Below are positions 42,190 through 60,745 of a DNA stretch of 64,000 bases, in pieces. The notes below the pieces were generated by a model that made no database searches, was not told the origin of the DNA, and worked only from the letters and a program-made list of their open reading frames with translations. Source of the stretch: Candidatus Falkowbacteria bacterium (GTDB lineage: Bacteria; Patescibacteriota; Patescibacteriia; CAIXNZ01). How positions within the stretch are numbered: position 1 is the stretch's first letter; each line of letters starts with the position of its first letter. Location of the stretch: contig CAVZGV010000003.1 of NCBI GenBank assembly GCA_963774955.1, positions 386,981 through 450,980 of the forward strand, given 5' to 3'. Both the position numbers and the translations under genes were made by a program.

Positions 42190-42259
42190 AGATGCGCGCT
42201 TTTTTATATCTAGATTTCAATTGACTTGTCTGCTCTTTGGCTGTAAAATTAGAGTAAAT

Positions 42260-43264
42260 ATGACCAAACAAACCGAAAAATTCAATAAAGGCGAAATCAT
42301 CATTTATCAGCCCAAAACCGGCGGGCCCAGGTTTGAGGTTGAGTTAGAAAAAGAATCAGTATGGCTAACCCAAGATCAAATGGCTCATTTGTTTGATAAA
42401 GGAAGATCTACAATTACTGAACATATTAATAATGTATTCAGAGAGAAAGAATTAAATGAAAAGTCAGTATGTCGGTATTTCCGACGTACTGGTTCTGATG
42501 GCAAAGTATACGAGGTTAAATATTATAATCTTGATGTAATTATATCTGTTGGTTATCGTGTGAAATCTAAACGAGGTACCGACTTCCGCATTTGGGCTAC
42601 TAATGTTCTTAGGACTCACTTAATCAAAGGTTATACTTTGAATCAAAAGCGTCTTAGAGAGACTCAATTAACAGATTTGGAACAGGCAGTGGCTCTGGTT
42701 AAAAATGCCTTGGAAACTAAAAAGCTCAAAGGCGCAGAAGCTAAGGGTTTGCTTGAAGTTATCACCAAATACGCTCAATCCTGGTTATTATTGCAAAAAT
42801 ACGATGAAGATAAATTGGTTTTGCCGGTTAAGCAGGCCAAACCCAAATATGAATTGGATTATAATCAGGCGATTAGTGCAATTTCTGATTTAAAGAACAA
42901 TCTGCTGGCCCAAAAGCAGGCTACTGATATATTTGGCAATGAAAGGGGGGAGGCATTAGCCGGGATTATCGGCAATCTTTACCAGACTTTTGGCGGTAAG
43001 GTCTTATATCCGTCAATTGAAGCCAAGGCTGCTCATCTGCTTTATTTCATCATCAAGGATCATCCGTTTAGCGATGGCAACAAGCGCATCGGCTCGTTTT
43101 TGTTTATCGTATTTTTGAGCAGAAATAATTATTTGCTGGATAAAAAGGGAGAGAGTAAGATAAATGATAATGCCTTGGTTGCTTTAGCTTTACTGATCGC
43201 CGCCAGCGACCCCAAACAAAAAGATGTCTTGGTCAAGCTGGTTATGAACTTTTTGACAAACTAA
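42260..43264 (+). CDS. RhuM-family protein with a C-terminal Fic/Doc domain
   Basis: RhuM N-terminal signature …VWLTQDQMAHLF…TITEHINNVF…YNLDVIISVGYRVKS…FRIWATNVL. Fic motif HPFSDGNKRIG (HPFx[DE]GNxR). Confidence 0.7.
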   Translation: MTKQTEKFNKGEIIIYQPKTGGPRFEVELEKESVWLTQDQMAHLFDKGRSTITEHINNVFREKELNEKSVCRYFRRTGSDGKVYEVKYYNLDVIISVGYRVKSKRGTDFRIWATNVLRTHLIKGYTLNQKRLRETQLTDLEQAVALVKNALETKKLKGAEAKGLLEVITKYAQSWLLLQKYDEDKLVLPVKQAKPKYELDYNQAISAISDLKNNLLAQKQATDIFGNERGEALAGIIGNLYQTFGGKVLYPSIEAKAAHLLYFIIKDHPFSDGNKRIGSFLFIVFLSRNNYLLDKKGESKINDNALVALALLIAASDPKQKDVLVKLVMNFLTN

Positions 43265-43417
43265 AAATTCCGCAAACGGAGCTAAGCTCCGAAGCGTCGG
43301 AGCTTAGCTCCGTCTTTCCCACTAACCAATAACCCCGCCCTCTACTTGCCCTCCGTAGCAATAGCGGAAAATGGGCGAAGGCAAGTAATCCCGCTACGCG
43401 GGAAAACTCTTAAATAT

Positions 43418-44095
43418 ATGGAAAAACAATTAATCATAAAATTACATAAAAATTTTGAAGATTGCGCTCATGAAAACGATGGGGTCGAATTTTGGTATGC
43501 TCGGGAATTGCAGTCTCTTTTAGGCTATGATCGTTGGGAAAATTTTGCCAATGCTGTAGAAAAAGCTAAAATTGCCTGTAAAAATTCTAAACAAAGCCTG
43601 TTAGACCATTTTCGTGACGTTACGAAGATGGTTAATATTGGTTCAGGCGCGAAAAAGGAGGTATCTGATATTATGTTGACCCGTTACGCCTGTTATCTTA
43701 TTGCGCAAAATGGCGACCCGAGAAAAGATGAAATAGCTTTTGCCATGACATATTTTGCGGTCCAGACCAGGAAGCAGGAACTTGTGGAACAGCGAATTGA
43801 AGCCTGGGAAAGATTGCAGGCCAGAGAAAAGCTATCATTATCTGAAAAGGAGTTGTCAGGAGTTTTATTTGAACGGGGAGTCGATGGCGTGGGATTTGCC
43901 AGAATTCGCAGCAAAGGCGACACGGCTTTATTTGGCGGCTATAATACTCAAGAGATGAAAAGCAAGCTTGGCGTATCAGAAAAAAGGCCTCTGGCTGATT
44001 TTCTGCCCAGAATAACCATCAAGGCCAAGGATTTAGCTAACGAGATAACGAGTTTCAATGTACACCACACACCATTCACCAAACCAACATCCTAA
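43418..44095 (+). CDS. DinD-like (DNA-damage-inducible protein D family) protein
   Basis: ATG 43418 (MEKQLII…). …GVEFWYARELQSLLGYDRWENFANAVEKAKIACKNS…DHF… matches the DinD-family core. Confidence 0.5.
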   Translation: MEKQLIIKLHKNFEDCAHENDGVEFWYARELQSLLGYDRWENFANAVEKAKIACKNSKQSLLDHFRDVTKMVNIGSGAKKEVSDIMLTRYACYLIAQNGDPRKDEIAFAMTYFAVQTRKQELVEQRIEAWERLQAREKLSLSEKELSGVLFERGVDGVGFARIRSKGDTALFGGYNTQEMKSKLGVSEKRPLADFLPRITIKAKDLANEITSFNVHHTPFTKPTS

Positions 44096-44124: not shown

Positions 44125-45132
44125 ATGCCAAAATATTTACTTACAATTTCGTGCCTAGTCTTCGCTGGTATCGGCCTGACCACTGCCAGCGCCTTGGCGC
44201 AGGCAACCCGGGACATCTTTTTCCCGACTGAGCAGTCAGTGACTTTTACTGACAGTTTTGGTGATGCCCGAAGCGGGCATTTGCATGAAGGCATTGATCT
44301 GATGGGCACAAAAATGATGCCGTTATACTCGGCCATAGACGGACGAGTGCGTTACACGGTGGATCCTGAAGCAGATTATGGCTACTCAGTTGTTTTGGAA
44401 GACAGTGACAATTACACTTATCATTATTTACATATTAACAATGACACGCCCGGCACAGATGATGGTTTAGGCGGGACAGCCAATGCTTATGCGCCGGGTA
44501 TTGTCCGGCGCGCTGCTGTGACCAAAGGTCAGTTAATCGGCTGGATGGGTGACAGCGGCAATGCTGAGAACGTGGGGCCGCATCTGCATTTTGAGATTCG
44601 TTTGCCTGACGGCACTGCTATTAATCCTTATTTAAGTTTAATCGATGCGCGTTATCCCGGCAGTTACAGTCTGACTGACGCGCTCAACGCCAGTCCTGAC
44701 ATTAATACTGACAAAAGTTTAGTCATTGGTTCAACGCCGGCAACTTGTGTTTCCGGTTCCAGAATCAAGCTCAAAGGCGCCACCACTGTTTATTATTGCG
44801 GGGCTGACTGTAAGCGTTATGTTTTTCCCACTGACAAGGTTTATTATTCCTGGTTTACCAGTTTTACCGGGGTGACTATTGTCACGGCCGAGCAGATGGC
44901 AGCTTTACCGCTTGGCGGCAATGTGACTTATCGTCCGGGCAGCAAGATGGTCAAGATTCAATCTGACACCAATGTTTATGCGGTGGAACAAGGCGGTGTT
45001 TTACGCTGGATGGTGTCAGCTGAGACTGCGACAGCGCTTTACGGCTCCACCTGGAAAAACAAGATAGACGATGTTTCCGATGCTTTTTTTATTAATTATA
45101 AAATGGGGGAGCCGGTTTTATCGGCGAGGTAA
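44125..45132 (+). CDS. secreted M23-family (LytM-type) metallopeptidase
   Basis: Signal peptide. HEGIDL (HxxxD) and GDSGNAENVGPHLHFEI (HxH) motifs. Confidence 0.7.
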   Translation: MPKYLLTISCLVFAGIGLTTASALAQATRDIFFPTEQSVTFTDSFGDARSGHLHEGIDLMGTKMMPLYSAIDGRVRYTVDPEADYGYSVVLEDSDNYTYHYLHINNDTPGTDDGLGGTANAYAPGIVRRAAVTKGQLIGWMGDSGNAENVGPHLHFEIRLPDGTAINPYLSLIDARYPGSYSLTDALNASPDINTDKSLVIGSTPATCVSGSRIKLKGATTVYYCGADCKRYVFPTDKVYYSWFTSFTGVTIVTAEQMAALPLGGNVTYRPGSKMVKIQSDTNVYAVEQGGVLRWMVSAETATALYGSTWKNKIDDVSDAFFINYKMGEPVLSAR

Positions 45133-45141
45133 GGTTGAAAA

Positions 45142-46524
45142 TTGATTGATTCGAAAACTTTTTCACTTGTCTCGGCTTTAGACGGAAAAAAAGTTTCACA
45201 AAAACTTGATTTGTTAATTATATTAGCTATGTGGCCAATATTTAAAAATGAAATTATAGAGGTGGTAAGACTTCTAGAAAATGAGAAATGGTTTGTTTTT
45301 GGTGGCTATACTATATATTTACAAAATATTAATCACAATCCCAAGGATATAGATATAATAACTACGTTAGAAGGTTTGACTAATTTAAAAACTAAGATTG
45401 GTAAGTATTCTAACGAGAAAGGAGATAATTGGATTGGGATAACATTTAAGTTAGGAGATGTGGAATTTGAAGTTATTACTGAAGAGAGTTCGGATTTACA
45501 ATATTATCAAGAATTTTTAGAGAATAGCGAGTATATTTTTATAACCTTGACTACGGCAGATGGTATACAAATACCCTGCTTATCTTTGTTAAAACAGGCT
45601 CAGGGTTATTATAATGTATACTGTGATGGTAAGGGTAGCCAAGACCCAATGATTAAAATAAAATTGATTGCAAATTTTTTAAATTTAGATCCCAATAAAT
45701 TTTTCGAATCATTAGAAAGAGAGTATAAAATTAAAAAGATAAAGTATTATATAAATAAAGGGCTTTCGTATGAACAGATTGGAAAAATACTGAATATTTC
45801 CCGGGCCAGGGTTCATCAATTGTATAAAAAATATTATCCCAAAAGAATAAATAATAATTTGAAGAAAATAGTTTTTGCTAGCGATAATATGCAGTGTCAA
45901 TGGCACAATATTTGCAGGGATAAGAAAGTTTTGAGATCTGATTTAGTGATTCATCATCTTGATGGAGACAATACCAATAATAATTTAGATAATTTAGTAA
46001 CTCTTTGTCGGTTTTGCTCAGCAGCATTTAATAAAATTAGAGATAAAGGGTATAAAGAATATATTTGTGATATATGCCAAAAAAAGTATAATCTTAAAGA
46101 AGGTAAGCTAATTAAAGATAAGTTTATCTGCAAATCATGCATAGAGGTGCGGAAAAATAAGAAAAATATATATTGGTGTGAAAAGTATAAACTTTCAAAA
46201 TGTGTCATCTGTGGAGAAAATAAAATAAGACATTTTGGGAATGGATTGTGTAGAAGATGTTATGGTAAGTTGAGATTTAGTGATACTGAAAATAAAATAA
46301 AACACAAAGAATCAATGAGAAAATGGCGAATTAAAAATTTAGAAAAAATAAAGTCAAAACAAAGGAAATATCATAAGAAATATTATTCAAAAAACAGGGA
46401 GATGTTATTGCGACAACAGAAAGAAAGAATGCAGGATATAAAGTTGAATGACCCCATTAAATATAAAGAGTTAAAAGAAAAGTGGACATTATATAACAAA
46501 AATAAATCCAAGCTTGCTCATTAG
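45142..46524 (+). CDS. AT-rich multidomain protein: NTase-like N-terminus, sigma70-region-4-like HTH, HNH endonuclease, multiple zinc ribbons
   Basis: TTG start per ORF track. FGGYTIYLQ…KDIDII (NTase-like). GLSYEQIGKILNISRARVHQLYKK (HTH). LVIHHLDGDNTNNNLDNLVTLCRFC (HNH). Then repeated CxxC pairs. Markedly lower GC than its flanks. Confidence 0.55.
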   Translation: MIDSKTFSLVSALDGKKVSQKLDLLIILAMWPIFKNEIIEVVRLLENEKWFVFGGYTIYLQNINHNPKDIDIITTLEGLTNLKTKIGKYSNEKGDNWIGITFKLGDVEFEVITEESSDLQYYQEFLENSEYIFITLTTADGIQIPCLSLLKQAQGYYNVYCDGKGSQDPMIKIKLIANFLNLDPNKFFESLEREYKIKKIKYYINKGLSYEQIGKILNISRARVHQLYKKYYPKRINNNLKKIVFASDNMQCQWHNICRDKKVLRSDLVIHHLDGDNTNNNLDNLVTLCRFCSAAFNKIRDKGYKEYICDICQKKYNLKEGKLIKDKFICKSCIEVRKNKKNIYWCEKYKLSKCVICGENKIRHFGNGLCRRCYGKLRFSDTENKIKHKESMRKWRIKNLEKIKSKQRKYHKKYYSKNREMLLRQQKERMQDIKLNDPIKYKELKEKWTLYNKNKSKLAH

Positions 46525-46650
46525 GTAAATGGCCATATATGATGTTAAAGTTAATTTATAAATTAAGATAAAAAGTCCTCTGGCGGAAGAGGATTTTTTG
46601 TGGATAACTTATATTGACTACTGACTAAACAGTCAGTACAATATAAGTAT

Positions 46651-47274
46651 ATGAAAACCTCAATTATCACCCCCAGGCAAAAGCAATTACTTCAAATTAT
46701 CCATGACTGGTTAAAAACTGAAGGTAATATTCCTTCATTTGAAGAAATGAAAAATGAACTTGGCGTAAACTCAAACCAAGCAGTTTTGGATTTATTAGAG
46801 AAATTGGAGGAGAAGAAAATGATTAAAAGAAACGAAGGACTAGCAAGATCAATAAATATTTTACAAAAGGGTTATGAATCACTTGAAGTTGCGCCTTTAG
46901 TAAATGTTGTTGGATTGGGTTCATGCGGACCTTTAGTTGAATTATTTGAGCAGAAAGATGTTTGGATGGAATTATCTCCGGAAGTTCATCAGTTTTCACA
47001 TGAGTTAATTATTATTAGGGCATTTGGCGATTCCATGATTGGGGCTGGTATTATTGATGGCGATTTGTTGCTTTTTACTAAAGCTAAAGAATTTAAGGAT
47101 AATGAAATTGTATTAGCCAGAACTATGGATGGTACAACCGTTAAACGATTAATAAATCGCGATAAAAAAACATATTTTCAGCCTGAAAATCCTAAATATG
47201 AAAGAATACCCGTGACTGAAGAAACTTATATTTTAGGTAAATTAATTAAAAATTTATCAAGAAATTATGCTTAA
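46651..47274 (+). CDS. lexA: LexA-like repressor (wHTH plus S24 peptidase)
   Basis: N-terminal LTPRQKQLLQIIHDWL…PSFEEMKNELG…NQAVLDLLEKLEEKKMIKR. C-terminal S24 block AFGDSMIGAGIIDGDLLL…TVKRL (Ser/Lys dyad). Stop overlaps the next gene start by 8 nt. Confidence 0.75.
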   Translation: MKTSIITPRQKQLLQIIHDWLKTEGNIPSFEEMKNELGVNSNQAVLDLLEKLEEKKMIKRNEGLARSINILQKGYESLEVAPLVNVVGLGSCGPLVELFEQKDVWMELSPEVHQFSHELIIIRAFGDSMIGAGIIDGDLLLFTKAKEFKDNEIVLARTMDGTTVKRLINRDKKTYFQPENPKYERIPVTEETYILGKLIKNLSRNYA

Positions 47275-49210
47275 AAAAGAATTATCTAGCCAAATCATAA
47301 ATAAAATCTTCAAAGATCCCGAAGTGCAGTATGGGCTAAAAGAATTTAAGGGCATTAAGCTTGCTGATGTCTTGGAAATTTTTGAAATTGAAAAAGGTAA
47401 GTATTATATAAAGGATCCTGTACGCGCTAAGGATATTTTAGTTTATAATGAGGAAAAAAATTTAAGCAAACCGGAGGAAATTATCCGTCAGCTTTGGCTT
47501 CATAAGATTATTAAAGATTATGGCTACCCGATAGATCGTATTGGGATTGAAAAAGACATCCATTTTGGCAGAGAAATTCATGGCAAAGCCGCTGATATTG
47601 TCATTTATCAAAAAGACAAGGAAACACCTTGGGTAATTATTGAATTAAAAAGTCCTGATGAGAAAAAAGGGTTGGAACAGTTAAAAAGTTATGTTAATTC
47701 CGAAGGAGCACCAATCGGCGTTTGGTCAAACGGCAACGAAAGAGTGATTTTATACCGATCACACCCTCATGAATTTGAAAATACTTTAAGGGATATCCCC
47801 AGAGCCGATCAATCAATTGAAGATGTGTTGGCAGAAGATGTGACCTTATCTGACTTGGAAAGCGATTTTGATTTGGTGGATATTATTAAAATTTTGGAAG
47901 AATTGGTTTTGGCTAATTCCGGGATGGATAGTTTTAATGAGATTTTTAAGCTGATATACGCAAAACTTTTTGATGAAAAAGAAGCTAAGAAGCGCGAAAA
48001 AAAGATTTTATATTTTAGACAATATAAGGATCCTGAATTGACCATGGCGCAAGTCAGCAAATTATTTGATTCAGCCAGGAAAGAATGGCCGGGAATCTTT
48101 AATGATTATGAGAAGATAGAATTGTCTCCCAATCATCTGGACGTCTGCGTGGGGCAATTGGAAAGAATTAAATTATATGATGCTAATCTGGAAGTTATTG
48201 ATTCCGCTTTTGAATATTTATTGCCTGATGTTGCTAAGGGCAAGAAGGGACAGTATTTTACGCCTCGCCATGTAATTAATATGGCGGTAAAAATGTTAAG
48301 TCCTCAGCCAAATGAATATGTCATTGACCCAGCCTGCGGTTCCGGCGGATTTTTAATTCACGCCATGCGTTATGTGTATGATAATTATTTGCATTTGGAT
48401 AGGGAGGCAATGAGTGATTACGCCAAAAAATATTTATTCGGCATTGATTTTGACGACAAATCAGTTAAGATTTCCCGCGCGCTCATGCTGATTGCCGGTG
48501 ATGGCAAATCTCATATTTTTAAATTAAATTCTTTAAATCCTAGGGATTGGATGGGGAATGAGGCGGAAAAGGAAAGAGCCAGAGGCGAATTAAGAAATTT
48601 GCTGCATAAATTTGATGATTATGATAAAAATAAAGACAATCAGGAAAATTTTAGATTCTTTGATTACGACATTTTACTTTCCAACCCTCCCTTTGCCGGA
48701 GAAATAATTGAAAAGTCGCTTTTAAACCAATATGAATTGTCAAAAAATGAAGCCGGTAAATTAAAAAATAAAATGGAACGCCATATTTTATTTATTGAGC
48801 GTTCATTGCAATTGGTCAAACCAGGCGGCAGATTGGCAATAGTTTTACCGCAAGGCGTTTTTAATAATACCAACATGCAGCAGATAAGGCAGTTTTTAAT
48901 GGACAAGGCAAGAATTTTAGCGGTAGTCGGGCTGAATGTGAATACTTTTAGACCTCATGCAGGAGTGAAAACATCAGTCCTATTTTTACAAAAATTTAAG
49001 GATAAGGAAAAACAGCCCAAAGATTATAATATTTTTATGGCCGTCTCCAAAAAGTCAGGCAAGGACAATTCAGGGGATTATGTTTATAAAAAAGATGCTG
49101 AAGGCAAGTTGGCGGTTGACATGAAAGGTAAGAAGGTTTTAGATCATGATTTGGACGAAATTGCGGAAGAATTTTTAAAGTTTGCGAAAAAGGAGGGTTT
49201 TAATTTTTAA
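47267..49210 (+). CDS. fused PD-(D/E)xK endonuclease / gamma-class N6-adenine DNA methyltransferase (Type IIB BcgI-A-like or Type IIG-like RM subunit)
   Basis: N-terminal AADIVIY…VIIELKSP (D…ExK). MTase motif I VIDPACGSGGFL and motif IV LSNPPF. 647 aa. Followed by a separate HsdS-like gene. Confidence 0.65.
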   Translation: MLKKELSSQIINKIFKDPEVQYGLKEFKGIKLADVLEIFEIEKGKYYIKDPVRAKDILVYNEEKNLSKPEEIIRQLWLHKIIKDYGYPIDRIGIEKDIHFGREIHGKAADIVIYQKDKETPWVIIELKSPDEKKGLEQLKSYVNSEGAPIGVWSNGNERVILYRSHPHEFENTLRDIPRADQSIEDVLAEDVTLSDLESDFDLVDIIKILEELVLANSGMDSFNEIFKLIYAKLFDEKEAKKREKKILYFRQYKDPELTMAQVSKLFDSARKEWPGIFNDYEKIELSPNHLDVCVGQLERIKLYDANLEVIDSAFEYLLPDVAKGKKGQYFTPRHVINMAVKMLSPQPNEYVIDPACGSGGFLIHAMRYVYDNYLHLDREAMSDYAKKYLFGIDFDDKSVKISRALMLIAGDGKSHIFKLNSLNPRDWMGNEAEKERARGELRNLLHKFDDYDKNKDNQENFRFFDYDILLSNPPFAGEIIEKSLLNQYELSKNEAGKLKNKMERHILFIERSLQLVKPGGRLAIVLPQGVFNNTNMQQIRQFLMDKARILAVVGLNVNTFRPHAGVKTSVLFLQKFKDKEKQPKDYNIFMAVSKKSGKDNSGDYVYKKDAEGKLAVDMKGKKVLDHDLDEIAEEFLKFAKKEGFNF

Positions 49211-49236
49211 GCATTTAATTATTAATAATTAGGAAT

Positions 49237-50052
49237 ATGAAAGATCTTATATCTCAAATTAAACAAAGTACCATATTTCTCGGGTTTATGAGAAATAATG
49301 AACCTGTCTATGTTGGAACTGGGTTTCTTATTCAGGTTGATGATGTTTTTTATGTTGTTACGGCAAAACATGTTGTTGAAAAAAAATATAGTCAAATGTA
49401 TATATTCCTAAATAATAAAAATTTTGGTGTAAATTTTAAGTCTATTCAAGAAATACTTAATCAGGGCTGGTCATGGAAAAAACATGGTGACAATGATGTT
49501 GACATCGCTTTATTGCCATTCCCGTTAGCTCCAACTGATAAATCAAAATTTATTCCACATACTTTATTTATTCAAGAAATAGCTGACATATCAGAACTTG
49601 TAAATTTATTTTTTTTATCGTATCAGCCAGGCATCAATGAGCTAAAAAATGATTCATCAATAAATCCTATAATTAGGAAGGGCGTAATATCAAGAATTAA
49701 TTACGATAAAACTTTTTTTATGGATGGGTTTGCATTCCCTGGAAATAGCGGCAGTCCCGTATTTTTGTTGCCAACGCCTATAAAAATTCAAAATGGTTTA
49801 ATGCAAATTGGAGGGCCGGTAGAAATTAAATTGGCAGGAATAATTGGGGCATATATTCCATACAGAGATGTAGCAGTAAGTGAGCAAACCGGAGAAGTTA
49901 GAGCTATTTTTACTGAAAACACTGGGATAGCACTTGTTCACTCAACAGCTCTTCTCCAGGAGATTATTAAGGGTGAAGATTTTCAAGAACAACATAAAAA
50001 ATTGACAAAAATAAAATTGATTCCTCAGGCGGAAAAAGAGCATTCTTCTTAG
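49237..50052 (+). CDS. cytoplasmic trypsin-like (S1/chymotrypsin fold) serine peptidase
   Basis: No signal peptide. His in VVTAKHVV, Asp in VDIALLPF, Ser in FPGNSGSPVFL. Confidence 0.55.
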   Translation: MKDLISQIKQSTIFLGFMRNNEPVYVGTGFLIQVDDVFYVVTAKHVVEKKYSQMYIFLNNKNFGVNFKSIQEILNQGWSWKKHGDNDVDIALLPFPLAPTDKSKFIPHTLFIQEIADISELVNLFFLSYQPGINELKNDSSINPIIRKGVISRINYDKTFFMDGFAFPGNSGSPVFLLPTPIKIQNGLMQIGGPVEIKLAGIIGAYIPYRDVAVSEQTGEVRAIFTENTGIALVHSTALLQEIIKGEDFQEQHKKLTKIKLIPQAEKEHSS

Positions 50053-50129
50053 TAGTTGGTATCTTTATTGATATTTTATCCCTATCTGTAGCCGTAAGTG
50101 GATAATCAAAATTAACTTAATTTTATTAT

Positions 50130-50966
50130 ATGGATGAGCGATTAAATAAAATGATTCTCGATATGGGAAAGCAATATGGCGAACATGCTAAAATTTTGAG
50201 CGAAAAAGTCAATGCGGAAATGAAAAAAAATTTTAAGGTAATCCATGAGATTACAGAAAGTTTAAAAAAACAAATTGAAGATATCAGCCCCGCAATTTTA
50301 ATGGTTCAAGAATCTATTCGGCAATTTGAGGAATCTAAGGAGTTTCATAAATTTGAGCAGCAAGCGTTTAATAATAGTGGTTGGTGGATAACCCCTTCAT
50401 TAATGGAAGTTCCAGTATACAAATTCCGTAATGCTGTAATTAAATACAATAAGGGTCAAAAAATTGCTATAACTAATTTGTATATATCGATTTATCAAAA
50501 GAATAATTGTAAATATTTGGGGCAGGTATTAAATAGTTGGGATAGTAATAAATACTTTAAACCATGGATGAAAATTATAAGGCAAGCATTAGAAGCTCAT
50601 GTGGATAAAAAATATTTTCTGTCAGTACCCGCATTATTGTTAGTAGCCGAGGGTATTTCAACTAATTATTGTAAAAAAAATAAGATTAAAATTCCCTATA
50701 AAGAAAATTCAAAAGGAGGTGAGAAAATCAAAAAAGCATTAAATTATATTAAAAATAATAAAGAAATTGAATTTTTAAATGCAGATTTTTTTATACTTGC
50801 TCTTGATAATATTATCTATGCTCAGACTTATAAAATTAATAAAAAAACTTTTAAATATTTCCTTAATCGCCATGCGGTTTTGCATGGTGGAACTACAGAC
50901 TATGGCACTTTGAAGAATTCATTAAAGTGTTTTATGTTGTTAGATTTTTTAAGTATTTTAAAATAA
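50130..50966 (+). CDS. hypothetical protein (278 aa), partner of the trypsin-like peptidase
   Basis: No recognisable motif. AT-rich. Its stop abuts the HsdS start (50966/50967). Confidence 0.5.
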   Translation: MDERLNKMILDMGKQYGEHAKILSEKVNAEMKKNFKVIHEITESLKKQIEDISPAILMVQESIRQFEESKEFHKFEQQAFNNSGWWITPSLMEVPVYKFRNAVIKYNKGQKIAITNLYISIYQKNNCKYLGQVLNSWDSNKYFKPWMKIIRQALEAHVDKKYFLSVPALLLVAEGISTNYCKKNKIKIPYKENSKGGEKIKKALNYIKNNKEIEFLNADFFILALDNIIYAQTYKINKKTFKYFLNRHAVLHGGTTDYGTLKNSLKCFMLLDFLSILK

Positions 50967-52292
50967 ATGACTTACTCAATAATCCCCAAATCCCACTTGG
51001 AAGGCGCTCTGCGTCTAGACCCGGAATACTATCAGCCGGAGTATTTGGAATTGATAAAAAAACTCGAGAAGTTGACTGATAAAAAATTGAAAGATTATGC
51101 TATTAACATTTCCAGGGGGTTTAAACCAATCAAGGGCGACTTTTTTAATTATATTGAAATATCAGAAATTGATTTAGGGAATGGTACTTTTAATGAATCT
51201 AAAATTCTAGGTGAGGAAGCACCGGATAGGGCGCAAAAAGTTGTAAAAGAGGGCGACGTTATTGTGTCTACTGTCAGGCCTAATAGAAATGCTGTTTCTT
51301 TGATCAGGGCAGAGCATAACAATTTTGTTGCTTCGAGCGGTTTTTGCAATATTGAACCTCGAAAAGTTTCTTCAGAGTATTTATTCGCTTATCTAAAAAC
51401 TAATCATGTTATAAAGCTATTGGACAGATTGACTTCCGCAAGCATGTATCCCGCGGTAACAGAGGAAGACATAATGAATTTACCTTTTTATGTTAAAAAT
51501 GAGCAAGCTATTATTAAATTAGTAAAAGAAGTTTTTGAGCAAATTGAGAAATCGAAATCGCTTTACGCCCAAGCCGAAGATTTACTGCTTGAAGAATTGG
51601 GTATTAATGATTTGGAATCAGAAGAAGATTTAACTTTTACAGCTACTTTAAAGGATTGCCTGCAAGCTGTTCGTATTGATGCTGATTTTTTTCAGCCGAA
51701 GTATGAGAGGATTTTAAGTAAAATAAAAGTTAAAAGGGAGAAATTAAGTAATTTAGTTTCTTTACAAAAGGGGATTGAGCCAGGCAGTGAAGAATATGCG
51801 GAAGAAGGCAAGCCGTTTATTCGCGTATCCAATATGTCCAAGTTCGGCTTAAATGATAATAATCAGCAATATTTGAGCGAGAAAATGTATAATGAATTGA
51901 AAGATAAATATCAGCCTCAAAAGGGAGATATTTTATTAAGTAAGGATGCGACTCCTGGCATTGCGGTTTTACTAGAAAAAGATGTTGAGGGTATTATCTC
52001 TGGCGGTACTTTACGATTAAAAATAAAAGATAAAACTTTAGTTCCTCAATACTTATCTTTAGTTTTAAATTCTGTAATTTGCCAAATGCAAATCGAAAGA
52101 GATGCTGGTGGGTCAATTATTATTCACTGGAGACCTGATCAAGTGGAAAATACAATTATTCCTATTTTACCCATCAAAATCCAGCAAAAAATTGCTGATT
52201 TGGTCAGTGAATCTTTTAAGTTAAGAAAAGAGGCCAAGGAACTACTAGAAGAAGCGAAAAAGAGGGTGGAGGAGGAGATTGAGAAGAAATAA
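50967..52292 (+). CDS. hsdS: restriction-modification specificity subunit (HsdS-like, two TRDs)
   Basis: GDVIVSTVRPNRNAV, YPAVTEEDIMNLPFYV, IPILPIKIQQKIADLV and a C-terminal coiled-coil spacer. 441 aa. Confidence 0.7.
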   Translation: MTYSIIPKSHLEGALRLDPEYYQPEYLELIKKLEKLTDKKLKDYAINISRGFKPIKGDFFNYIEISEIDLGNGTFNESKILGEEAPDRAQKVVKEGDVIVSTVRPNRNAVSLIRAEHNNFVASSGFCNIEPRKVSSEYLFAYLKTNHVIKLLDRLTSASMYPAVTEEDIMNLPFYVKNEQAIIKLVKEVFEQIEKSKSLYAQAEDLLLEELGINDLESEEDLTFTATLKDCLQAVRIDADFFQPKYERILSKIKVKREKLSNLVSLQKGIEPGSEEYAEEGKPFIRVSNMSKFGLNDNNQQYLSEKMYNELKDKYQPQKGDILLSKDATPGIAVLLEKDVEGIISGGTLRLKIKDKTLVPQYLSLVLNSVICQMQIERDAGGSIIIHWRPDQVENTIIPILPIKIQQKIADLVSESFKLRKEAKELLEEAKKRVEEEIEKK

Positions 52293-52295
52293 ATA

Positions 52296-52320
52296 AAAAT
52301 CTCATCTAAAATATTTTTTA
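52296..52320. repeat. REP-like intergenic motif AAAAATCTCATCTAAAATATTTTTTA (copy 1)
   Basis: Variants at 54369-54395, 54714-54740, 55689-55715, 59652-59688 (CCCCTAAGGGG variant), 60718-60745 and 62154-62181. Always sits between a stop and the next start. Confidence 0.6.
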
Positions 52321-52336
52321 AAATAACTAAAAATCT

Positions 52337-53923
52337 ATGGAAGCAGGTAAGAGAAACATCTCAGATATATTTAATCGCGCGCATAAATTATCAGTCCCTC
52401 ATTTTCAGCGAGCGTATGTTTGGGATGAGGAACAGTGGGAAAGATTTTTGGAGGATGTGGACTATGCTTCACGGGCAAATCCCCCTTATTTTATGGGGTC
52501 TATTATCTTGAAACAGCAAGAGACTACAATTAAGCAAGGCGATATACGTACAATTATTGATGGCCAGCAAAGATTGACGACATTTATTTTATTCTTTAAA
52601 GTACTCTATGATAAGCTAGGATTACCCGAAAAATTTAAGGAAATTTTCACCACTTTTGGCGGTGATATAATTCTGGAACATAATTATTCCGACAGGCCAA
52701 TCTTTGAAAAAATTTTACTGGGTGATGAATTGGGTAAAAAGGAAAAGAAGACAAGAATTTATAAATGTTATGATTATTTTTTGAATAATATTGATGAAAA
52801 AGTAATTAGCCCCAATAACTTACTGTCAAATATATTATTTGTGGGTATTGAGTTGCAATATCATGAAGATGAGCAGCAAATTTTTGATACTATTAATTCA
52901 TTGGGTGTTAGACTGACAACTGCCGAATTGTTGAAGAATTATTTATTTAAGGATGATCTTGATTTTTATAATAAGAATTGGCGCGATGTATTTGAAAAAG
53001 AGGATGAAATTAAGGAATACTGGGACCAGGGAGTAACTTCCGGCCGAAATATTAGAAATAATATTGACCTATTCTTGCAGTCTTATTTATTTATTAAGAT
53101 TCAAGAGAAAGACATTAATGTGAGCTCTGAGGATAAAGAACGTTATTTTAAGATTGATTCCGTTTTTAATTCGTATAAGGAATTCATGAATAAATACAAA
53201 CAGGATAGGGATTCGATCATCAATGAGTTAAAGGATTATGCGCTTATTTATAAGGATACTATTAATCCCGAAATTGTTGAGCAAGATTTAAATGCAGATG
53301 ATTATGTGCAGCGGATAAACTTGGTAATGTTTGGATTAGATACTGCAACGATTATTCCATATGTGCTGTATGTATCCAAAAAAGTGAGAGATGAGGAGGA
53401 AAAAAATAAGATTTTTAGATATCTTGAAGCGTATTTGATGAGACGGCTTGTTTCGAAAAAAACTACTAAAAATTACAATCAATTATTTAGGGGTTTTATT
53501 AATAATGAGATTGATACATTGGAAAAATTAAAGGATGCAATTGAGAAAAAGGGCGAAAAGATTAATAATATGCCAACAGACAATGATGTAATGGAGGGCG
53601 TAAATAAATCCCAGCTAACTAATAAACAAGCAAGGGGCATCCTTTATTTGATTGAGAGGTCAATCAGAAGCGATCTAAACGCTACTGAGCTAAAATTTCT
53701 TAATGAATATAGTCTTGAACACGTAATGCCAAAGAAATGGAGGAATAATTGGGGAGGTAATGAATTAACTGATGAACAGAAAAAAGAGCGAGATGATATA
53801 TTGTTGACATTGGGTAATTTGACATTAATTACTAAAAAATTAAATTCGTCAATTAGAGATTCTGACTGGCAGAAAAAGAAAAAGGGTAGGGGAAGCCATA
53901 AAGGATTGCTAGAGTATGCTTAA
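52337..53923 (+). CDS. GmrSD-like Type IV restriction enzyme (DUF262 ParB-like N-domain plus DUF1524 His-Me C-domain)
   Basis: N-terminal …HFQRAYVW…IIDGQQRLTT (DGQQR). C-terminal …LEHVMPKKW…LGNLTLI (His-Me finger-like). Confidence 0.6.
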   Translation: MEAGKRNISDIFNRAHKLSVPHFQRAYVWDEEQWERFLEDVDYASRANPPYFMGSIILKQQETTIKQGDIRTIIDGQQRLTTFILFFKVLYDKLGLPEKFKEIFTTFGGDIILEHNYSDRPIFEKILLGDELGKKEKKTRIYKCYDYFLNNIDEKVISPNNLLSNILFVGIELQYHEDEQQIFDTINSLGVRLTTAELLKNYLFKDDLDFYNKNWRDVFEKEDEIKEYWDQGVTSGRNIRNNIDLFLQSYLFIKIQEKDINVSSEDKERYFKIDSVFNSYKEFMNKYKQDRDSIINELKDYALIYKDTINPEIVEQDLNADDYVQRINLVMFGLDTATIIPYVLYVSKKVRDEEEKNKIFRYLEAYLMRRLVSKKTTKNYNQLFRGFINNEIDTLEKLKDAIEKKGEKINNMPTDNDVMEGVNKSQLTNKQARGILYLIERSIRSDLNATELKFLNEYSLEHVMPKKWRNNWGGNELTDEQKKERDDILLTLGNLTLITKKLNSSIRDSDWQKKKKGRGSHKGLLEYA

Positions 53924-54065
53924 GGAATTGAGATATTTTCAAAATATTTACAGAAGGAGTCATGGGGTGAGGAGGGAATAAAGGAACGCGCAAATGAACT
54001 TTATGATTATATGGTTAAGAATGTTTGGAACTTGAAGTTTTAAAAAACAGAGGAATTTTATATTT

Positions 54066-54737: not shown

Positions 54738-55340
54738 ATGAAAAAACTCTCCCATCTCCTCATCCTCACCACCCTCATCCTCACCCTCACCGCCTGTTCT
54801 GAAGCGGGGACACTGGTTGTTAATACTAACCAGTGTCGGGATGTGGAATTGGCCAAACCAAATATTAATCAAATAGTTGCGCCTGAAAATAATGTTCCGG
54901 AACCTGTTTCTGATTTATACCCTGTGACCAAAGTCGTTGACGGCGATACCATCGATGTAAATATTGACGGCACAGTTGAGAGGATCAGGTTGATCGGCAT
55001 TGATACTCCGGAAATAGTTGATCCCAGAAAACCCGTGGAATGTTTCGGACTTGAGGCTTCCAATAAAGCCAAGGCAGTTTTGACCGGCCAACAAGTCAGA
55101 TTGGAAAAAGATAATTCTCAGGCCAATCGGGATGTTTATAATCGTTTGTTACGATACGTCTTTTTGGCTGACGGTATAAATTTTAATAAGATGATGATTG
55201 AACAGGGTTATGCTTATGAATATACTTATGACCTGCCCTATAAATACCAGACAGAATTTAAACAAGCGCAAAAATATGCGCAGGACAATAAATTAGGGCT
55301 TTGGCAGGATAATGTTTGCCCGGGTACGACATTAAAATGA
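54738..55340 (+). CDS. lipoprotein thermonuclease (SNase-like)
   Basis: Lipobox LTLTACSEA. VVDGDTIDVNIDG…RIRLIGIDTPE SNase active-site region. Confidence 0.7.
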   Translation: MKKLSHLLILTTLILTLTACSEAGTLVVNTNQCRDVELAKPNINQIVAPENNVPEPVSDLYPVTKVVDGDTIDVNIDGTVERIRLIGIDTPEIVDPRKPVECFGLEASNKAKAVLTGQQVRLEKDNSQANRDVYNRLLRYVFLADGINFNKMMIEQGYAYEYTYDLPYKYQTEFKQAQKYAQDNKLGLWQDNVCPGTTLK

Positions 55341-55395: not shown

Positions 55396-55714
55396 TTTCA
55401 TTGAAAGAGAATGATGATTTTGGCCAATCGGAAGGTAGAGACACGGTTAACCGTGTCTCTACAGAACGTAAATTCGGTTCAGTCCCGCCAAAATCATTGT
55501 CATCAATTGTTAATACATTTAAAGGCGGCGTAACCCGTCGTTGTCATGAAAATAAATTGGATTTCAAATGGCAATCAAATTATCACGAACATATCATCCG
55601 CGACGAGGACGATTATGCCCGGATCTGCGAATATATCCGCTGTAACCCGGGTAAATGGTCTGAAGATCGAAATAATCCTTTAAATATAAAAAATCTCATC
55701 TAAAATATTTTTTA
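55396..55714 (+). mobile_element. 5'-truncated copy of the IS200/RAYT-type HuH transposase gene, about 99% identical to the 3' ~320 nt of copy 61600-62181
   Basis: Encodes …DFGQSEGRDTVNRVSTERKF…WQSNYHEHIIRDEDDYARI… (catalytic-Tyr region) but lacks the HVH motif. Ends in the REP-like motif. Confidence 0.6.
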
Positions 55715-55815: not shown

Positions 55816-56196
55816 ATGCCAAACGCTAATTTAAAAAAATTCGGCGAGCTTTTGAAAGCTTTAAGAATGAAGCAGGATTTAAGCTTGCGGGACGTATGCA
55901 AAAAGGTTAATTATGACCCCAGCAACTGGAGCAAGATTGAAAGAGGTATGATTTCTCCGCCCAGCGAGGAGGTTGTTTTAGGCCAATGGGCATTGGCCTT
56001 AGGTCTGGCCAAAGAGAGCAAAGAGTATTATGAATTTATTGATTTGGCCAATATTGCCCAGGGCATTATTCCGGATTACATTATGCAGGAAAAAGACTTG
56101 GTCAGAGCTTTGCCGGCTTTTTTCAGGACGGTTAGAAATGAAAAACCGACCAAAAAAGAGATTGACGATTTAATCAATCTGATTAAGAATAATTAG
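55816..56196 (+). CDS. XRE-family HTH transcriptional regulator
   Basis: LKALRMKQDLSLRDVCKKVNYDPSNWSKIERG (HTH_3). Confidence 0.65.
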   Translation: MPNANLKKFGELLKALRMKQDLSLRDVCKKVNYDPSNWSKIERGMISPPSEEVVLGQWALALGLAKESKEYYEFIDLANIAQGIIPDYIMQEKDLVRALPAFFRTVRNEKPTKKEIDDLINLIKNN

Positions 56197-56203
56197 GAAA
56201 TTA

Positions 56204-56779
56204 ATGCAAACACCTTATTTCAAAAATCAGGAGCTTAAGCACAAAGCTGATGAGTTCAGAATTAAGCATTGGGGCAATGATGTGCCGGTAGATATTGAGC
56301 AGATTATTGAAGTTAAGCTGGGTATGGATATTATTCCGGTTCCCGGTTTATATAAACAATGCAATACCGATGCTTTGATTTCTTCGGACTGGAAGACGAT
56401 TTATGTGGATAATGATAATTATATTGATGACAGATGTTATAACCGCATTCGTTTCTCTTTGGCGCATGAAATCGGCCATTTTATTTTGCATCAGGAGCTT
56501 TATGCATCTTTTGGCATTATGAGCGTTGAGGATTTTTATAATATAATTGATGGGTTAAATAATGATTATGGGATAATTGAAGGCCATGCCAATCGCTTTG
56601 CCAATTTTTTGCTGGTACCGAGAGAAAAATTGGAAATTGAAAAGGTCAAAGCCTTGCAAGCCCACCCCGAAATAAAGGAATTGGAAGCTGCAACTGTAAA
56701 TTCCTACATTGCTATTCCCTTAAGTAAAATATTTGAGGTTAATGAAGGAGTCGTGGAAATTAGCCTAAATAACAAATAA
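56204..56779 (+). CDS. ImmA/IrrE-family metallopeptidase
   Basis: HExxH in SLAHEIGHFILH. Immediately downstream of the XRE gene, the classic ImmR/ImmA arrangement. Confidence 0.65.
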   Translation: MQTPYFKNQELKHKADEFRIKHWGNDVPVDIEQIIEVKLGMDIIPVPGLYKQCNTDALISSDWKTIYVDNDNYIDDRCYNRIRFSLAHEIGHFILHQELYASFGIMSVEDFYNIIDGLNNDYGIIEGHANRFANFLLVPREKLEIEKVKALQAHPEIKELEAATVNSYIAIPLSKIFEVNEGVVEISLNNK

Positions 56780-57553: not shown

Positions 57554-57629
57554 AAATCTCATCCCCAAAGCCAATCCCAATTGCGCTTATTGCAATTATC
57601 GGTCAGAGGCAAGGGAAGTGGAGGAATAA
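57543..57629 (+). CDS. candidate 28-aa Cys-containing peptide (MLSRNLIPKANPNCAYCNYRSEAREVEE)
   Basis: ATG preceded by GAGGAATAAGT. Overlaps the stop of the Cas4-like gene. Lies ~40 nt upstream of the rSAM/SPASM gene. Contains CAYC. Confidence 0.25.
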   Translation: MLSRNLIPKANPNCAYCNYRSEAREVEE

Positions 57630-57667
57630 AAATTTTATTTAAAATATTTTCAAAACAATTTTTTAAG

Positions 57668-59653
57668 ATGAATAATGATGATCCAAAATTAAAATTTCTC
57701 TCGCTAGAACTCTCGCCCGAATGCGACCAGAACTGTAAGCATTGTTATGCTAATTCATTGAAGTCTCAGGTTGAAAATATACTTACCTTTGAACAATGGC
57801 TTGACGTTATTAAGGCTGCTAAAAAAATAGGTTGTGAAGAAATACGCTTAACCGGTGGGGAGCCAACACTTAGTCCTTATTTTTTTAAAATAATAAAAGC
57901 CGCTCATCAAATAGGTCTTAAAATTGGCTTTAATACTCACGGCGTTCTTAGTAATGCAATTTTGGCTAAAATAGTCAGCGCTGCGCCTGAGAGGATTTTT
58001 ATCAGTTTTGAGGGCTCGCCAAAGACTGATGCGGAAATAAGGGGCAAGAAACATTTTCAGCGGGCGTTTAATAGTGCAAAGTTTTTAAAACAGGCGGGGC
58101 TTGAGGTGTTGATGAATGTACATTTAAGAAAGAGTAATTATCGAGAAATTGAAAAGTTGTCCAAAATAGCGGTTGAAAATAATTTTATTCTCAAATTGCC
58201 ATTTCTTCGTCCAATTGGGCGAGCCGCAGAATGCCTGACTGAAGAAATATTAAATCCAGATCAAACCTTGGTTGTTGCTAAGGAAACAGAAAGAGTTAAA
58301 ATTAAATATCCTGCTTTAAAAATAACAAGCGATTACCAACTGCTAGGTGATGTTCAGCAGCATATGCTGAATCATTGTCCTGCCGGGATAGTTTCTATCC
58401 ATATTAATCCTGATGGCACTGCTTTCCCCTGTGGTTTTATGAGAGCAGATGATTTTAAGTTGGGAAATATTAAAAAAATTTCTTTGAAACAAATTTGGTT
58501 TAAATCGCCACTGTTAATTAAAATGAGAAAGGTTACGGGGGCACCAAAATGTCAGCATTGTGAATATTTTAAAAGTAAATGTTCTGGACCTGCTAGATGC
58601 TTTTCTTATTACCTTAATGGTAAGTTATTCAGCGATGATCCAATTTGTTTTGCCAAAAGTAAGAGTGAAGAAATTGGACTTGAATTTTTAAAGAAGAAAG
58701 TAGGCAGGTTGCCCAAAAAAGAAAGGGAATTATTTAATAAAATATTTGATTTGAAAATAGATAAATCTGAAAAAGGGGATAACATTATAAGTTTAAGAAA
58801 CAAAATTGAAATGACTCAAGGGATTTATAATGTAGCTTCAAGACAGGGGAGACCCATTGATCCTGTAAAGTTAAAAAAAATCAGAAAACTTTGTGACCAG
58901 GTATCTGATTGTAAGATTTGTAAAAAAGGCCGGGGGAAACAGCAGTTTTTAGATGCTTTGCCCGGAGCTTATACCAAACATCATAAGGTTTTGTTTTTTG
59001 ACAAACACAATCCCACCAATATAACGCCATCATTGGTTACTGCTTGTTTAAAGGCATCCGTTTGCTGGTCTCAAAAAGAAGCTTTTCAAAAGAAGAAATA
59101 TTATCCTTATATATTTTGGAATACGTTAATCGGGTCTGAAATCCATGGCCATGCGCATTTGATTTTAGCGGAAGATCTGCAATTTGCTGAAGTTGAAGAT
59201 CTTTCAATCAAAGCCAAATCGTTTGGTGAAATTAAAGGCAAGAATTATTGGGAATCTTTATTTAAAGCCCATTTATTAGTCGGTTTGGCAAAACAAGTAG
59301 GGCGATTTAAATATTTTATGAATCTTGTCCCTAAATCGTCAAGGGAAATTTTTATCTTTGGCAAAACCGGCTTGGATGAAATGGCAATAACTAGTTTATC
59401 GCTGCTAGTTTCAAAAATTTGTCAGAATTGGATTAATCGAACACCCTTTAGGGTGCCGGCGCTAAGTATTTTTATAAGTTATCCTTTGCCCCAGAAAGTA
59501 AACAAGGACAAATTAACTATTGTCCGAATTGTTGATAGAAGATATCCGTTATTGGGAAAGACTGACAGAGGTACGGTTGAAGAATTTGCTTTTAAGGTTG
59601 TGACACATGATCCCTTTGAGGAATGGAAACAATTAGAAAAAACGCTTAAATAA
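57668..59653 (+). CDS. radical SAM/SPASM-domain protein fused to a C-terminal HIT-like (His-triad) domain
   Basis: ATG 57668 (MNNDDPK…). CDQNCKHC (CxxxCxxC), LTGGEPTL. SPASM Cys pattern CPAGIVSIHINPDGTAFPCGF…CQHCEYFKSKCSG…C. C-terminal …GSEIHGHAHLIL (HxHxHxx). Confidence 0.6.
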   Translation: MNNDDPKLKFLSLELSPECDQNCKHCYANSLKSQVENILTFEQWLDVIKAAKKIGCEEIRLTGGEPTLSPYFFKIIKAAHQIGLKIGFNTHGVLSNAILAKIVSAAPERIFISFEGSPKTDAEIRGKKHFQRAFNSAKFLKQAGLEVLMNVHLRKSNYREIEKLSKIAVENNFILKLPFLRPIGRAAECLTEEILNPDQTLVVAKETERVKIKYPALKITSDYQLLGDVQQHMLNHCPAGIVSIHINPDGTAFPCGFMRADDFKLGNIKKISLKQIWFKSPLLIKMRKVTGAPKCQHCEYFKSKCSGPARCFSYYLNGKLFSDDPICFAKSKSEEIGLEFLKKKVGRLPKKERELFNKIFDLKIDKSEKGDNIISLRNKIEMTQGIYNVASRQGRPIDPVKLKKIRKLCDQVSDCKICKKGRGKQQFLDALPGAYTKHHKVLFFDKHNPTNITPSLVTACLKASVCWSQKEAFQKKKYYPYIFWNTLIGSEIHGHAHLILAEDLQFAEVEDLSIKAKSFGEIKGKNYWESLFKAHLLVGLAKQVGRFKYFMNLVPKSSREIFIFGKTGLDEMAITSLSLLVSKICQNWINRTPFRVPALSIFISYPLPQKVNKDKLTIVRIVDRRYPLLGKTDRGTVEEFAFKVVTHDPFEEWKQLEKTLK

Positions 59654-60366: not shown

Positions 60367-60745
60367 TTGATGCTTGAAATTTGGGATTTCAATATCATGC
60401 CCAATCATGTACACGTTGTTTTTTTATTGAAAGAGAATAATGATTTTGGCCAATCGGACGGTAGAGACACGGTTAACCGTGTCTCTACAGAACGTAAATT
60501 CGGTTCAGTCCCGCCAAAATCATTGTCATCAATTGTTAATACATTTAAAGGCGGCGTAACCCGTCGTTGTCATGAAAATAAATTGGATTTCCAATGGCAA
60601 TCAAATTATTACGAACATATCATCCGTGATGAAGACGATTATGCCCGCATTAAGGAATACATTTTCTGTAATCCCGGCAAATGGGCAGAAGACCGCAATA
60701 ATCCCATTAATATTAAATAAAAATCTTATCTGAAATATTTTTAAA
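60367..60745 (+). mobile_element. diverged, 5'-truncated copy of the IS200/RAYT-type transposase gene
   Basis: Retains MPNHVHVVF (HuH) and …WQSNYYEHIIRDEDDYARI. Lacks the first ~70 codons. Ends in a variant REP-like motif. Confidence 0.55.

Follow-up and report, generated by a model that had tools for sequence, protein, structure and literature searches.

A stretch of 64,000 nucleotides from a Candidatus Falkowbacteria bacterium (assembly GCA_963774955.1, contig CAVZGV010000003.1, positions 386,981 to 450,980 of the forward strand; from here on, the window) was found to carry a restriction-modification (RM) gene cluster headed by lexA, the gene of a LexA-type repressor. The explanation that we favor, and that we regard as fairly probable when taken as a whole, is that lexA, an RM gene, two cargo genes and a specificity (S) gene make up a single lexA-led operon, which would be gated by LexA and inducible by DNA damage.

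All of the genes lie on the plus strand. The first of them, lexA (46651-47274, 207 amino acids), codes for a winged helix-turn-helix (HTH) and an S24 autopeptidase according to profile searches, and its reading frame shares 8 nt (ATGCTTAA) with that of the RM subunit, a nuclease-methyltransferase fusion (47267-49210, 647 amino acids; HSDR_N_2 and N6_Mtase). Two cargo genes follow, one for a trypsin-like serine protease (49237-50052, 271 amino acids; Trypsin_2) and one for a protein without a recognized family (50130-50966, 278 amino acids). The S subunit, with two target recognition domains (TRDs) and Methylase_S in two stretches, is encoded at 50967-52292 (441 amino acids), 1.76 kb downstream of the RM gene, and its start codon directly abuts the stop codon of the 278-amino acid gene. 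A GmrSD-type (DUF262/DUF1524) Type IV enzyme gene, with an open reading frame (ORF) at 52337-53923 (528 amino acids) and a tail to 54043, is probably the last gene of the operon, in truncated form. No terminator was predicted between lexA and the RM gene. Upstream of lexA, a terminator-like hairpin with a T-run (AAAAAGTCCTCT...AGAGGATTTTTT, 46570..46599, plus strand; inverted repeat I1, with 12-nt arms that are 92% complementary) is likely the terminator of the preceding 460-amino acid gene and would insulate the lexA promoter. These ORFs, the 8-nt overlap and the motifs AADIVIY...IIELK (in full, KAADIVIY...VIIELK), DPACGSGGFL and NPPF had been pointed out in an earlier reading of the letters without database searches (the sequence-only reading), and all of them were found as described, at the coordinates given there.

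The lexA product matched LexA_DNA_bind (2.8e-11) and Peptidase_S24 (7.7e-19) in Pfam and passed the cut-off of the NCBIfam lexA equivalog TIGR00498 (117.3 bits against 110.95), in agreement with the earlier proposal that the repressor is of the LexA type and not a C-protein. When the protein was aligned to E. coli LexA structures, the cleavage site was located at Cys92-Gly93 (46924-46929) and the Ser/Lys dyad, the loss of which would have spoken against that proposal, was intact, with Ser128 at 47032-47034 and Lys165 at 47143-47145 (all on the plus strand). Ser128, Lys165 and Gly93 were invariant in 70 of 70 LexA relatives, and the scissile pair was Ala-Gly in 62 of them and Cys-Gly in six, including the window protein. 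The self-cleavage residues of this LexA are intact, and cleavage is predicted.

A sigma-70-type promoter (TTGACT, 17 nt, TACAAT; 46614..46642, plus strand) that matches at 10 of 12 positions precedes lexA, and the TTGAC...-10 layout recurs in related loci. The spacer between its -35 and -10 elements is filled by a perfect 20-bp palindrome, TACTGACTAAACAGTCAGTA (46619..46638), which is the putative LexA operator and answers the search for a palindrome upstream of 46651 that the sequence-only reading had suggested. This palindrome (inverted repeat I5) consists of 8-nt arms and a 4-nt spacer with the core GAC-N6-GTC; it was single in the window at up to three mismatches and did not appear in 100 shuffles. 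A palindrome was present at the equal position in 68 of 70 related lexA promoters, with the consensus ACCCGACTAAATAGTCGGGT and the core GAC-N6-GTC. The lexA ATG lies 8 nt past the -10 element, and 31-33 nt past the operator start in the relatives; because the ATG is so close to the -10, the lexA mRNA is probably leaderless, as judged from this spacing only. A perfect 10-nt inverted repeat, ACTTATATTG / CAATATAAGT (46607-46616 / 46639-46648), was also noticed; it encloses the -35 and -10 elements together with the operator, and its register is shifted by 2 nt relative to the inner palindrome.

Both operator arms were seen to change together with the recognition helix of LexA. The arms are CTGAC / GTCAG in the clade of the window, where the helix reads SNQA..D, and CCGAC / GTCGG in the majority of loci, where it reads SNQS..D, while a minority clade with the helix ..N carries the arm GTCAT. 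The two variable helix positions align to A42 and E45 of E. coli LexA, which are residues that contact bases. This co-variation of helix and operator is what direct readout would predict, though it is confounded by phylogeny.

Further LexA sites were not found in the window by pattern and position weight matrix (PWM) scans, and in 1.2 Mb of flanks (PWM at thresholds of at least 17 and at least 11 bits) the only addition was a second site upstream of lexA, in locus L046. A metagenome scan with CCCGACYAAATRGTCGGG gave 120 hits, of which about 100 were intrinsic-terminator hairpins of unrelated genomes, and all of the promoter-type matches were lexA promoters. Hairpins that match the operator consensus CCCGACCAAATGGTCGGG are also very common as intrinsic terminators of unrelated genomes (L081-L200), and for this reason exact-match operator scans are swamped by false positives. 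A search for recA among the loci collected here, with an approximate E. coli RecA query, gave a single partial match at the end of L110, a locus in which no LexA was present and the operator match was of the terminator type.

A second conserved element was observed in the same promoters. The 9-mer TGTGGATAA (46599..46607, minus strand), the reverse complement of TTATCCACA, which we take to be the canonical DnaA-box 9-mer by consensus, lies 6 nt upstream of the -35. It was exact in 35 of 68 related lexA promoters and present with at most one mismatch in 49 of 68, against an expectation of 0.006 and 0.039, respectively, per 110-nt promoter (loci L001-L080 and L201-L214). Nearly half of the exact TTATCCACA boxes in 1.26 Mb were at lexA promoters, and the element was also present in loci found by way of LexA, including the upstream region of a divergent fusion of the P0358 type (see below). 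This conserved DnaA-box-like site beside the -35 may add a replication input.

The linkage of lexA to methyltransferase (MTase) genes extends far beyond this locus. It was followed in 80 relatives anchored on the MTase, 75 of which had enough upstream sequence for the upstream count. In 69 of these 75 loci, which span phyla of the Candidate Phyla Radiation (CPR; Patescibacteria), to which the bacterium of the window also belongs, lexA stood directly upstream of the MTase gene, and the gap between the two genes was -29 to +25 nt in 65 of 68 relatives. The linkage was equally clear from the side of LexA: seven LexA homologues, chosen only for long contigs, all had a DNA MTase downstream. It was an HSDR_N_2-type MTase with S in four of the seven, another N6_Mtase with S in one, an N6_N4_Mtase with a HinfI-family endonuclease, and then SMODS/SLATT, in one, and an N6_N4_Mtase with PemK in one. 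Likewise, an MTase gene adjoined or was fused to lexA in all 16 loci with enough sequence among the 19 lexA genes of the operator scan in metagenomes. Altogether, 23 of 23 evaluable lexA-anchored loci carried an MTase, from several families, either fused to LexA (six cases) or no more than two genes downstream, and D12-class and Eco57I-type MTases were recognized by Pfam downstream of other lexA genes. The coupling of lexA and MTase is a lineage-wide rule, and not a peculiarity of one locus, also for other RM types.

The six LexA::MTase fusions, all with the same operator upstream, were located in loci L093 (4789-6282), L117 (1313-2746), L135 (929-2392), L163 (2556-4403), L178 (969-2810) and L193 (2691-4151). 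The LexA::N6_N4_Mtase architecture was confirmed by Pfam for L093, L117, L163 and L178; L135 and L193 were called from ORF length, tblastn and motifs only. The genes after the fusions of L093, L163 and L178 are Type II endonuclease-like (SfiI/BglI-like, TdeIII, DUF6996/6997). When one fusion served as the query, more than 100 distinct clusters that combine LexA_DNA_bind, S24 and N6_N4_Mtase came up.

Such adjacency could in principle carry no regulatory meaning, with lexA acting as a preferred integration site for RM cassettes. The RM types found downstream of lexA are interchangeable, and the GC content of the operon and the gene upstream (45001-54000) is low, 0.28-0.37 against 0.40-0.48 in the preceding 5 kb. 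Nevertheless, frames that overlap or abut in 65 of 68 loci, the lack of a predicted terminator between lexA and the RM gene and repeated in-frame LexA-MTase fusions, which require co-expression, make this reading very unlikely.

The upstream gene was also inspected in relatives of the MTase that have no lexA. Judged by eye from its N-terminal sequence, it looks RadC-like in L017 (9387-9948), L018 (299-839), L038 (9282-9962) and L055 (103-789), with an Xre-type HTH gene ahead of it in the first two of these loci.

The enzyme behind lexA was assigned from both sequence and fold. The 647-amino acid protein matched HSDR_N_2 (6.9e-21) and N6_Mtase (9.3e-40) in Pfam. Its PD-(D/E)xK nuclease domain (about residues 69-178, 47471-47800, plus strand) includes D110, E126 and K128, and its gamma-class N6-adenine MTase domain (about residues 310-600, 48194-49066, plus strand) holds motif I, DPACGSGGF (48326-48352, plus strand), and motif IV, NPPF (48683-48694, plus strand). 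All 76 relatives (55-96% identity) had E95, D110, E126, K128 and both MTase motifs unchanged; in a deeper alignment of 58 sequences, down to 30% identity, D110 remained invariant and E126 and K128 were conserved in at least 90%. The N-terminal nuclease domain proposed by the sequence-only reading was thereby confirmed as HSDR_N_2, as opposed to an HsdM N-domain, with invariant catalytic residues. The family is large, with 879 clusters at 50% identity (E of 1e-30 or lower), and a 96%-identical RM gene is in contig L001 of a Parcubacteria metagenome-assembled genome (MAG). Relatives at 43-48% identity are single chains of 1093-1210 amino acids that unite HSDR_N_2, N6_Mtase and Methylase_S.

The best solved relative by sequence was the Type IIB enzyme RM.BsaXI (phmmer, E 1.7e-26), and the nuclease motif was aligned too. 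A first AlphaFold model, from 24 close homologues, was unusable (predicted local distance difference test, pLDDT, 59.9); a second one (AF2), from the 58-sequence alignment, had a pLDDT of 86.9 and a predicted TM-score (pTM) of 0.76. With this model, the top three Foldseek hits were BsaXI chains, aligned over about 670 columns that included the N-terminal domain (E 5e-27 to 2e-25), and HsdM structures came next (about 1e-18), aligned over the MTase part only (about 400-500 columns). No HsdR was found in the 64-kb window, where a 988-amino acid ORF turned out to be a UvrD/AddA-type helicase-nuclease, and no conserved hsdR was found near the 80 related loci (large ORFs within 10 kb and downstream genes), with ResIII in three of 54. 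Because of the HSDR_N_2 domain, the first rank of BsaXI by sequence and fold and the lack of hsdR, the filing of the enzyme as Type IIB-like (of the BsaXI/BcgI kind) is supported; cleavage on both sides of the recognition site, with excision of a short fragment, would be expected of an enzyme of this kind. The "BcgI-like" organization given in the sequence-only reading thus held, through BsaXI as the closest enzyme; the nearby hsdR that could have undone it did not appear.

Two other assignments of the enzyme were considered. In the first, the genes would be a classical Type I pair, HsdM and HsdS, with HsdR elsewhere, or else a fragment of a methylation-associated defence system (MADS; Maestri et al. 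2024, as cited in bioRxiv 10.64898/2026.09.23.753747). PADLOC labels the RM protein "Type I methyltransferase" (MTase_I, 610 bits), the best named NCBIfam matches were MAD2 for the RM protein (2e-99) and MAD5 for S (4e-40), and genes between MTase and S also occur in MADS, going by its gene numbering. The scores, however, were far under the cut-offs (MAD2, 334 bits against 720; MAD5, 138 against 400), and the other six mad genes were absent among the neighboring window proteins in NCBIfam and PADLOC. The classical Type I version is opposed by the HSDR_N_2 N-terminus in place of HsdM_N, by the absence of HsdR from the window and of a conserved one from the 80 loci and by the rank of BsaXI above the HsdM structures. 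Both versions were rejected; this explanation is largely refuted and highly improbable.

The second assignment keeps the genes in an SOS regulon and takes M and S as a methylation-only, epigenetic or housekeeping system, which would restore methylation after repair synthesis, with a PD-(D/E)xK domain that does not cut. The MTase is unusually well conserved across CPR phyla (55-96% identity among relatives, median 59%), the neighbors at the 80 related loci are housekeeping genes (rpoB, tRNA synthetases, mraZ/mraW, EF-Tu), and PADLOC files the protein under an MTase name. Against it, the nuclease residues were invariant in all 76 relatives and conserved down to 30% identity, S diversifies and is swapped between strains, which is typical of restriction arms races, and genuine Type II endonucleases (HinfI, TdeIII, SfiI/BglI-like) come after the MTase in other lexA operons. 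We therefore judge a methylation-only role to be improbable.

The S gene behaves as expected from the description of a two-TRD subunit at 50967, with two Methylase_S stretches in Pfam and full-length matches to Specificity_I in PADLOC. It was found downstream of the RM gene in 62 relatives, and the S subunits were 25-78% identical among relatives (median 35%). In addition, sister contigs in the samples ERR12035938 and ERR15459710 share the protease, the 278-amino acid gene and an RM protein of 100% identity, combined with another S of 380 amino acids that starts 31 nt past the cargo gene; an identical RM protein with another S gene points to replacement of S alleles between close strains.

The gap that separates S from the RM gene is a slot for cargo, and its content is hypervariable. 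About 55 of 67 loci carried one to five co-directional genes in this gap, and 90 cargo ORFs fell into 60 clusters. The recurrent domains were NYN (8), DUF3800 (8), Trypsin_2 (3), AAA_21/AAA_15 OLD-like ATPases (3), the RnlA DNA-binding domain (3) and DUF4145 (2), together with Schlafen, PemK/MazF, two HEPN families and PBECR3. The protease of the window matched Trypsin_2 in Pfam (4.1e-8) and PDC-S45 (1e-19) and the LmuA N-terminus (4e-10) in PADLOC, and at the RM-S slot it recurred only in L002 among the 80 relatives. The 278-amino acid protein had no match in Pfam, NCBIfam or PADLOC and no relative among the cargo of the 80 loci. The protease cassette that had been singled out between the two RM genes is present, and is better described as one case of this general slot.

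For the GmrSD-like enzyme, both domains were recognized (GmrSD_N 5.6e-36, GmrSD_C 2.1e-16), the second of them incomplete, and the gene is a truncated, locus-specific add-on: it was absent from all 80 related loci. An in-frame TAA is situated at 53921-53923, and read-through into the tail (39 codons, 53924-54040; stop at 54041-54043) raised the coverage of GmrSD_C from 105 to 136 of 138 positions and its score from 60.5 to 70.9 bits. Since this tail completes the GmrSD_C match, the gene is truncated by a nonsense codon. The identical 528-amino acid call was found in a sister contig.

A mechanism can be proposed from these elements. LexA dimers would bind the operator and keep the operon at a low basal level, at which complexes of RM and S would methylate host DNA and cut unmodified invaders. 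Whenever DNA damage, phage replication or the processing of breaks left by restriction gave rise to single-stranded DNA and RecA*, LexA would cleave itself at Cys92-Gly93 and free the operon from repression. Higher RM levels would follow, and the nested cargo, which is probably toxic, would be expressed as a further layer of defence. Single-stranded DNA from phage replication, or from breaks that basal restriction had itself introduced, is a plausible trigger, and the circuit would then be a feed-forward alarm. LexA would in this way take the position of the C-protein in classical RM systems and add a damage input. The SOS-controlled, damage-inducible restriction already put forward in the sequence-only reading is something that we too infer, from sequence comparisons.

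Several observations weigh against this proposal. The LexA cleavage site in the clade of the window is Cys-Gly, the pair used by UmuD, and not Ala-Gly. No second operator was seen in the window, the 1.2-Mb flanks or the metagenome scan. Within the operon, promoter-like hexamers are about as frequent as in shuffled sequence, so that internal promoters could be present. Furthermore, as R and M reside in one polypeptide, induction would raise both activities, and a benefit of induction is a matter of argument. Finally, at least one MAG apparently has two LexA-type genes on different MTases. The name of the fusion P0358 refers to Woesebacteria GW2011_GWB1_39_10, the MAG from which L009 also comes, and in L009 (9382-11947) lexA is followed by an HSDR_N_2 MTase; the second LexA-type gene is at L212 4900-6467. 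The recognition helix of P0358, SSLSTVHQH, is Gram-positive-like, and its upstream region has the direct repeat ATCTTCGGTA twice and no palindrome. If the binning is correct, at least some genomes thus appear to contain a pair of LexA-type genes, each tied to an MTase of its own, a pattern that is easier to reconcile with a dedicated controller than with a global SOS regulator.

LexA could indeed be a controller of this dedicated kind, which would act on RM much as a C-protein does, in establishment and homeostasis and outside the SOS response, and by which the RM level would be kept low and delayed after transfer; self-cleavage would then serve turnover or answer a signal other than RecA*. 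It would explain why lexA is always attached to an MTase, whatever its family, why the two LexA-type genes of one MAG have different DNA-binding domains, why other operators were missing from the scans, and why helix and operator diversify together, as expected of insulated controllers. In addition, the slot of lexA is held by an Xre-type HTH and/or the RadC-like gene in the relatives that lack it. On the other hand, the invariant Ser/Lys dyad and the Ala/Cys-Gly site point to signal-dependent cleavage, and the protein passes the LexA equivalog cut-off. This alternative, which overlaps the LexA-gated, damage-inducible operon and differs from it in the signal only, we hold to be unlikely. A more far-reaching statement can be made only tentatively, as a possibility that falls short of being probable: self-cleaving LexA proteins would be near-universal dedicated RM controllers in Patescibacteria, placed ahead of, or fused to, MTases of at least four families and with operator and recognition helix diversifying in concert, and RM with abortive infection (Abi) cargo would be the main or only LexA regulon of these reduced genomes, SOS-wired and with a DnaA-box input.

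The individual parts of the locus (LexA, a Type IIB-like RM, GmrSD and Abi-type cargo) are of known kinds. Like the enzymes of the BsaXI (PDB 8w0p/8w2p/8w2q) and BcgI type, the window enzyme joins an N-terminal PD-(D/E)xK domain and a gamma-class N6-adenine MTase in one polypeptide; its S subunit, with two TRDs, is encoded separately, and a motor subunit is lacking from the window. The comparison was made with BsaXI, to which identity is only about 20%, and the window protein, with 647 amino acids against 916, lacks the C-terminal extension of BsaXI. We know of no characterized Type IIB enzyme that is led by lexA or has cargo between RM and S. The single-chain R-M-S architecture is that of AloI/TstI/CjeI-like enzymes. 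Single-chain Type IIB/IIG enzymes of this build, represented by the relatives at 43-48% identity, have the same domains, whereas the S of the window is a separate gene. MAD2 and MAD5 of MADS are the nearest named relatives of the window RM and S, at the distance given above.

In C-protein-controlled Type II RM systems, an autoregulated repressor heads the operon and has its operator in its own promoter. The window shares the repressor-first operon and the operator inside the promoter of the repressor, but its regulator is a LexA-family winged HTH with S24 and not a small Xre-type C protein; moreover, the LexA regulator is sometimes fused to the MTase, and several RM types share this regulator and its operator. 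The window locus has no small Xre-family C protein, and an Xre HTH occupied the slot only in the LexA-less L017 and L018. Defence genes embedded in Type I RM loci are known from prrC in EcoprrI, and the window resembles this case in that Abi-type effectors are nested in an RM operon; its cargo, however, is between RM and S of a Type IIB-like system. Damage-sensing control of defence is known from CapH/CapP-CBASS (CBASS, cyclic oligonucleotide-based antiphage signaling system), in which a cleavable repressor also ties defence to DNA damage. There, an HTH protein works with a separate metallopeptidase, while the regulator of the window is LexA itself.

With LexA/SOS regulons, the window has in common the LexA domains, the dyad, the cleavage site and the autoregulatory palindrome, and differs in that the only targets found for the window-type LexA were lexA-RM promoters. 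An SOS network of Patescibacteria has been reported (Sanchez-Osuna, Barbe, Erill 2017, Environ Microbiol 19:3465; as cited in PMC8565304). Setting aside that study, no papers that link LexA to RM operons or to MTase fusions were found in the literature searched. With the same proviso, a cleavable LexA that heads, or is fused into, several RM types across a whole lineage is a combination for which no description was found in that literature, nor was one found for the co-variation of operator and helix, for the slot that holds cargo ahead of S or for the DnaA-box-like element.

Additional observations were made in the surroundings of the operon. The flanks in the window hold defence- or mobile-element-like genes (55816-56779, 54738-55340, 42221-44095, 57581-59653); they are an HTH_31 and Peptidase_M78 (ImmA/IrrE) pair, an SNc nuclease (PADLOC C3a212), a RhuM/Fic protein, a Bro-N protein and a radical-SAM/SPASM protein. 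On the plus strand, three copies of the 20-mer TACAGAACGTAAATTCGGTT (55460-55479, 60486-60505 and 61926-61945) indicate that some repeat element is present. Over 45001-54000, the GC skew was strongly positive across the operon and the gene upstream of it.

RM systems are normally under small C-proteins or unregulated, and SOS regulons normally hold repair genes. The CPR is a huge, mostly uncultured radiation, largely without CRISPR, and throughout it a cleavable LexA heads, or is fused into, RM operons. If LexA gates these operons, defence in the CPR would be coupled to DNA-damage, and possibly replication, signals, and the gap between RM and S would be a discovery site for new defence effectors under one switch. 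Under the same assumption, the LexA::methyltransferase fusions would offer a testable case in which the proteolysis of a repressor releases an enzyme. A concrete putative operator and a recognition-helix code are also supplied for a LexA lineage.

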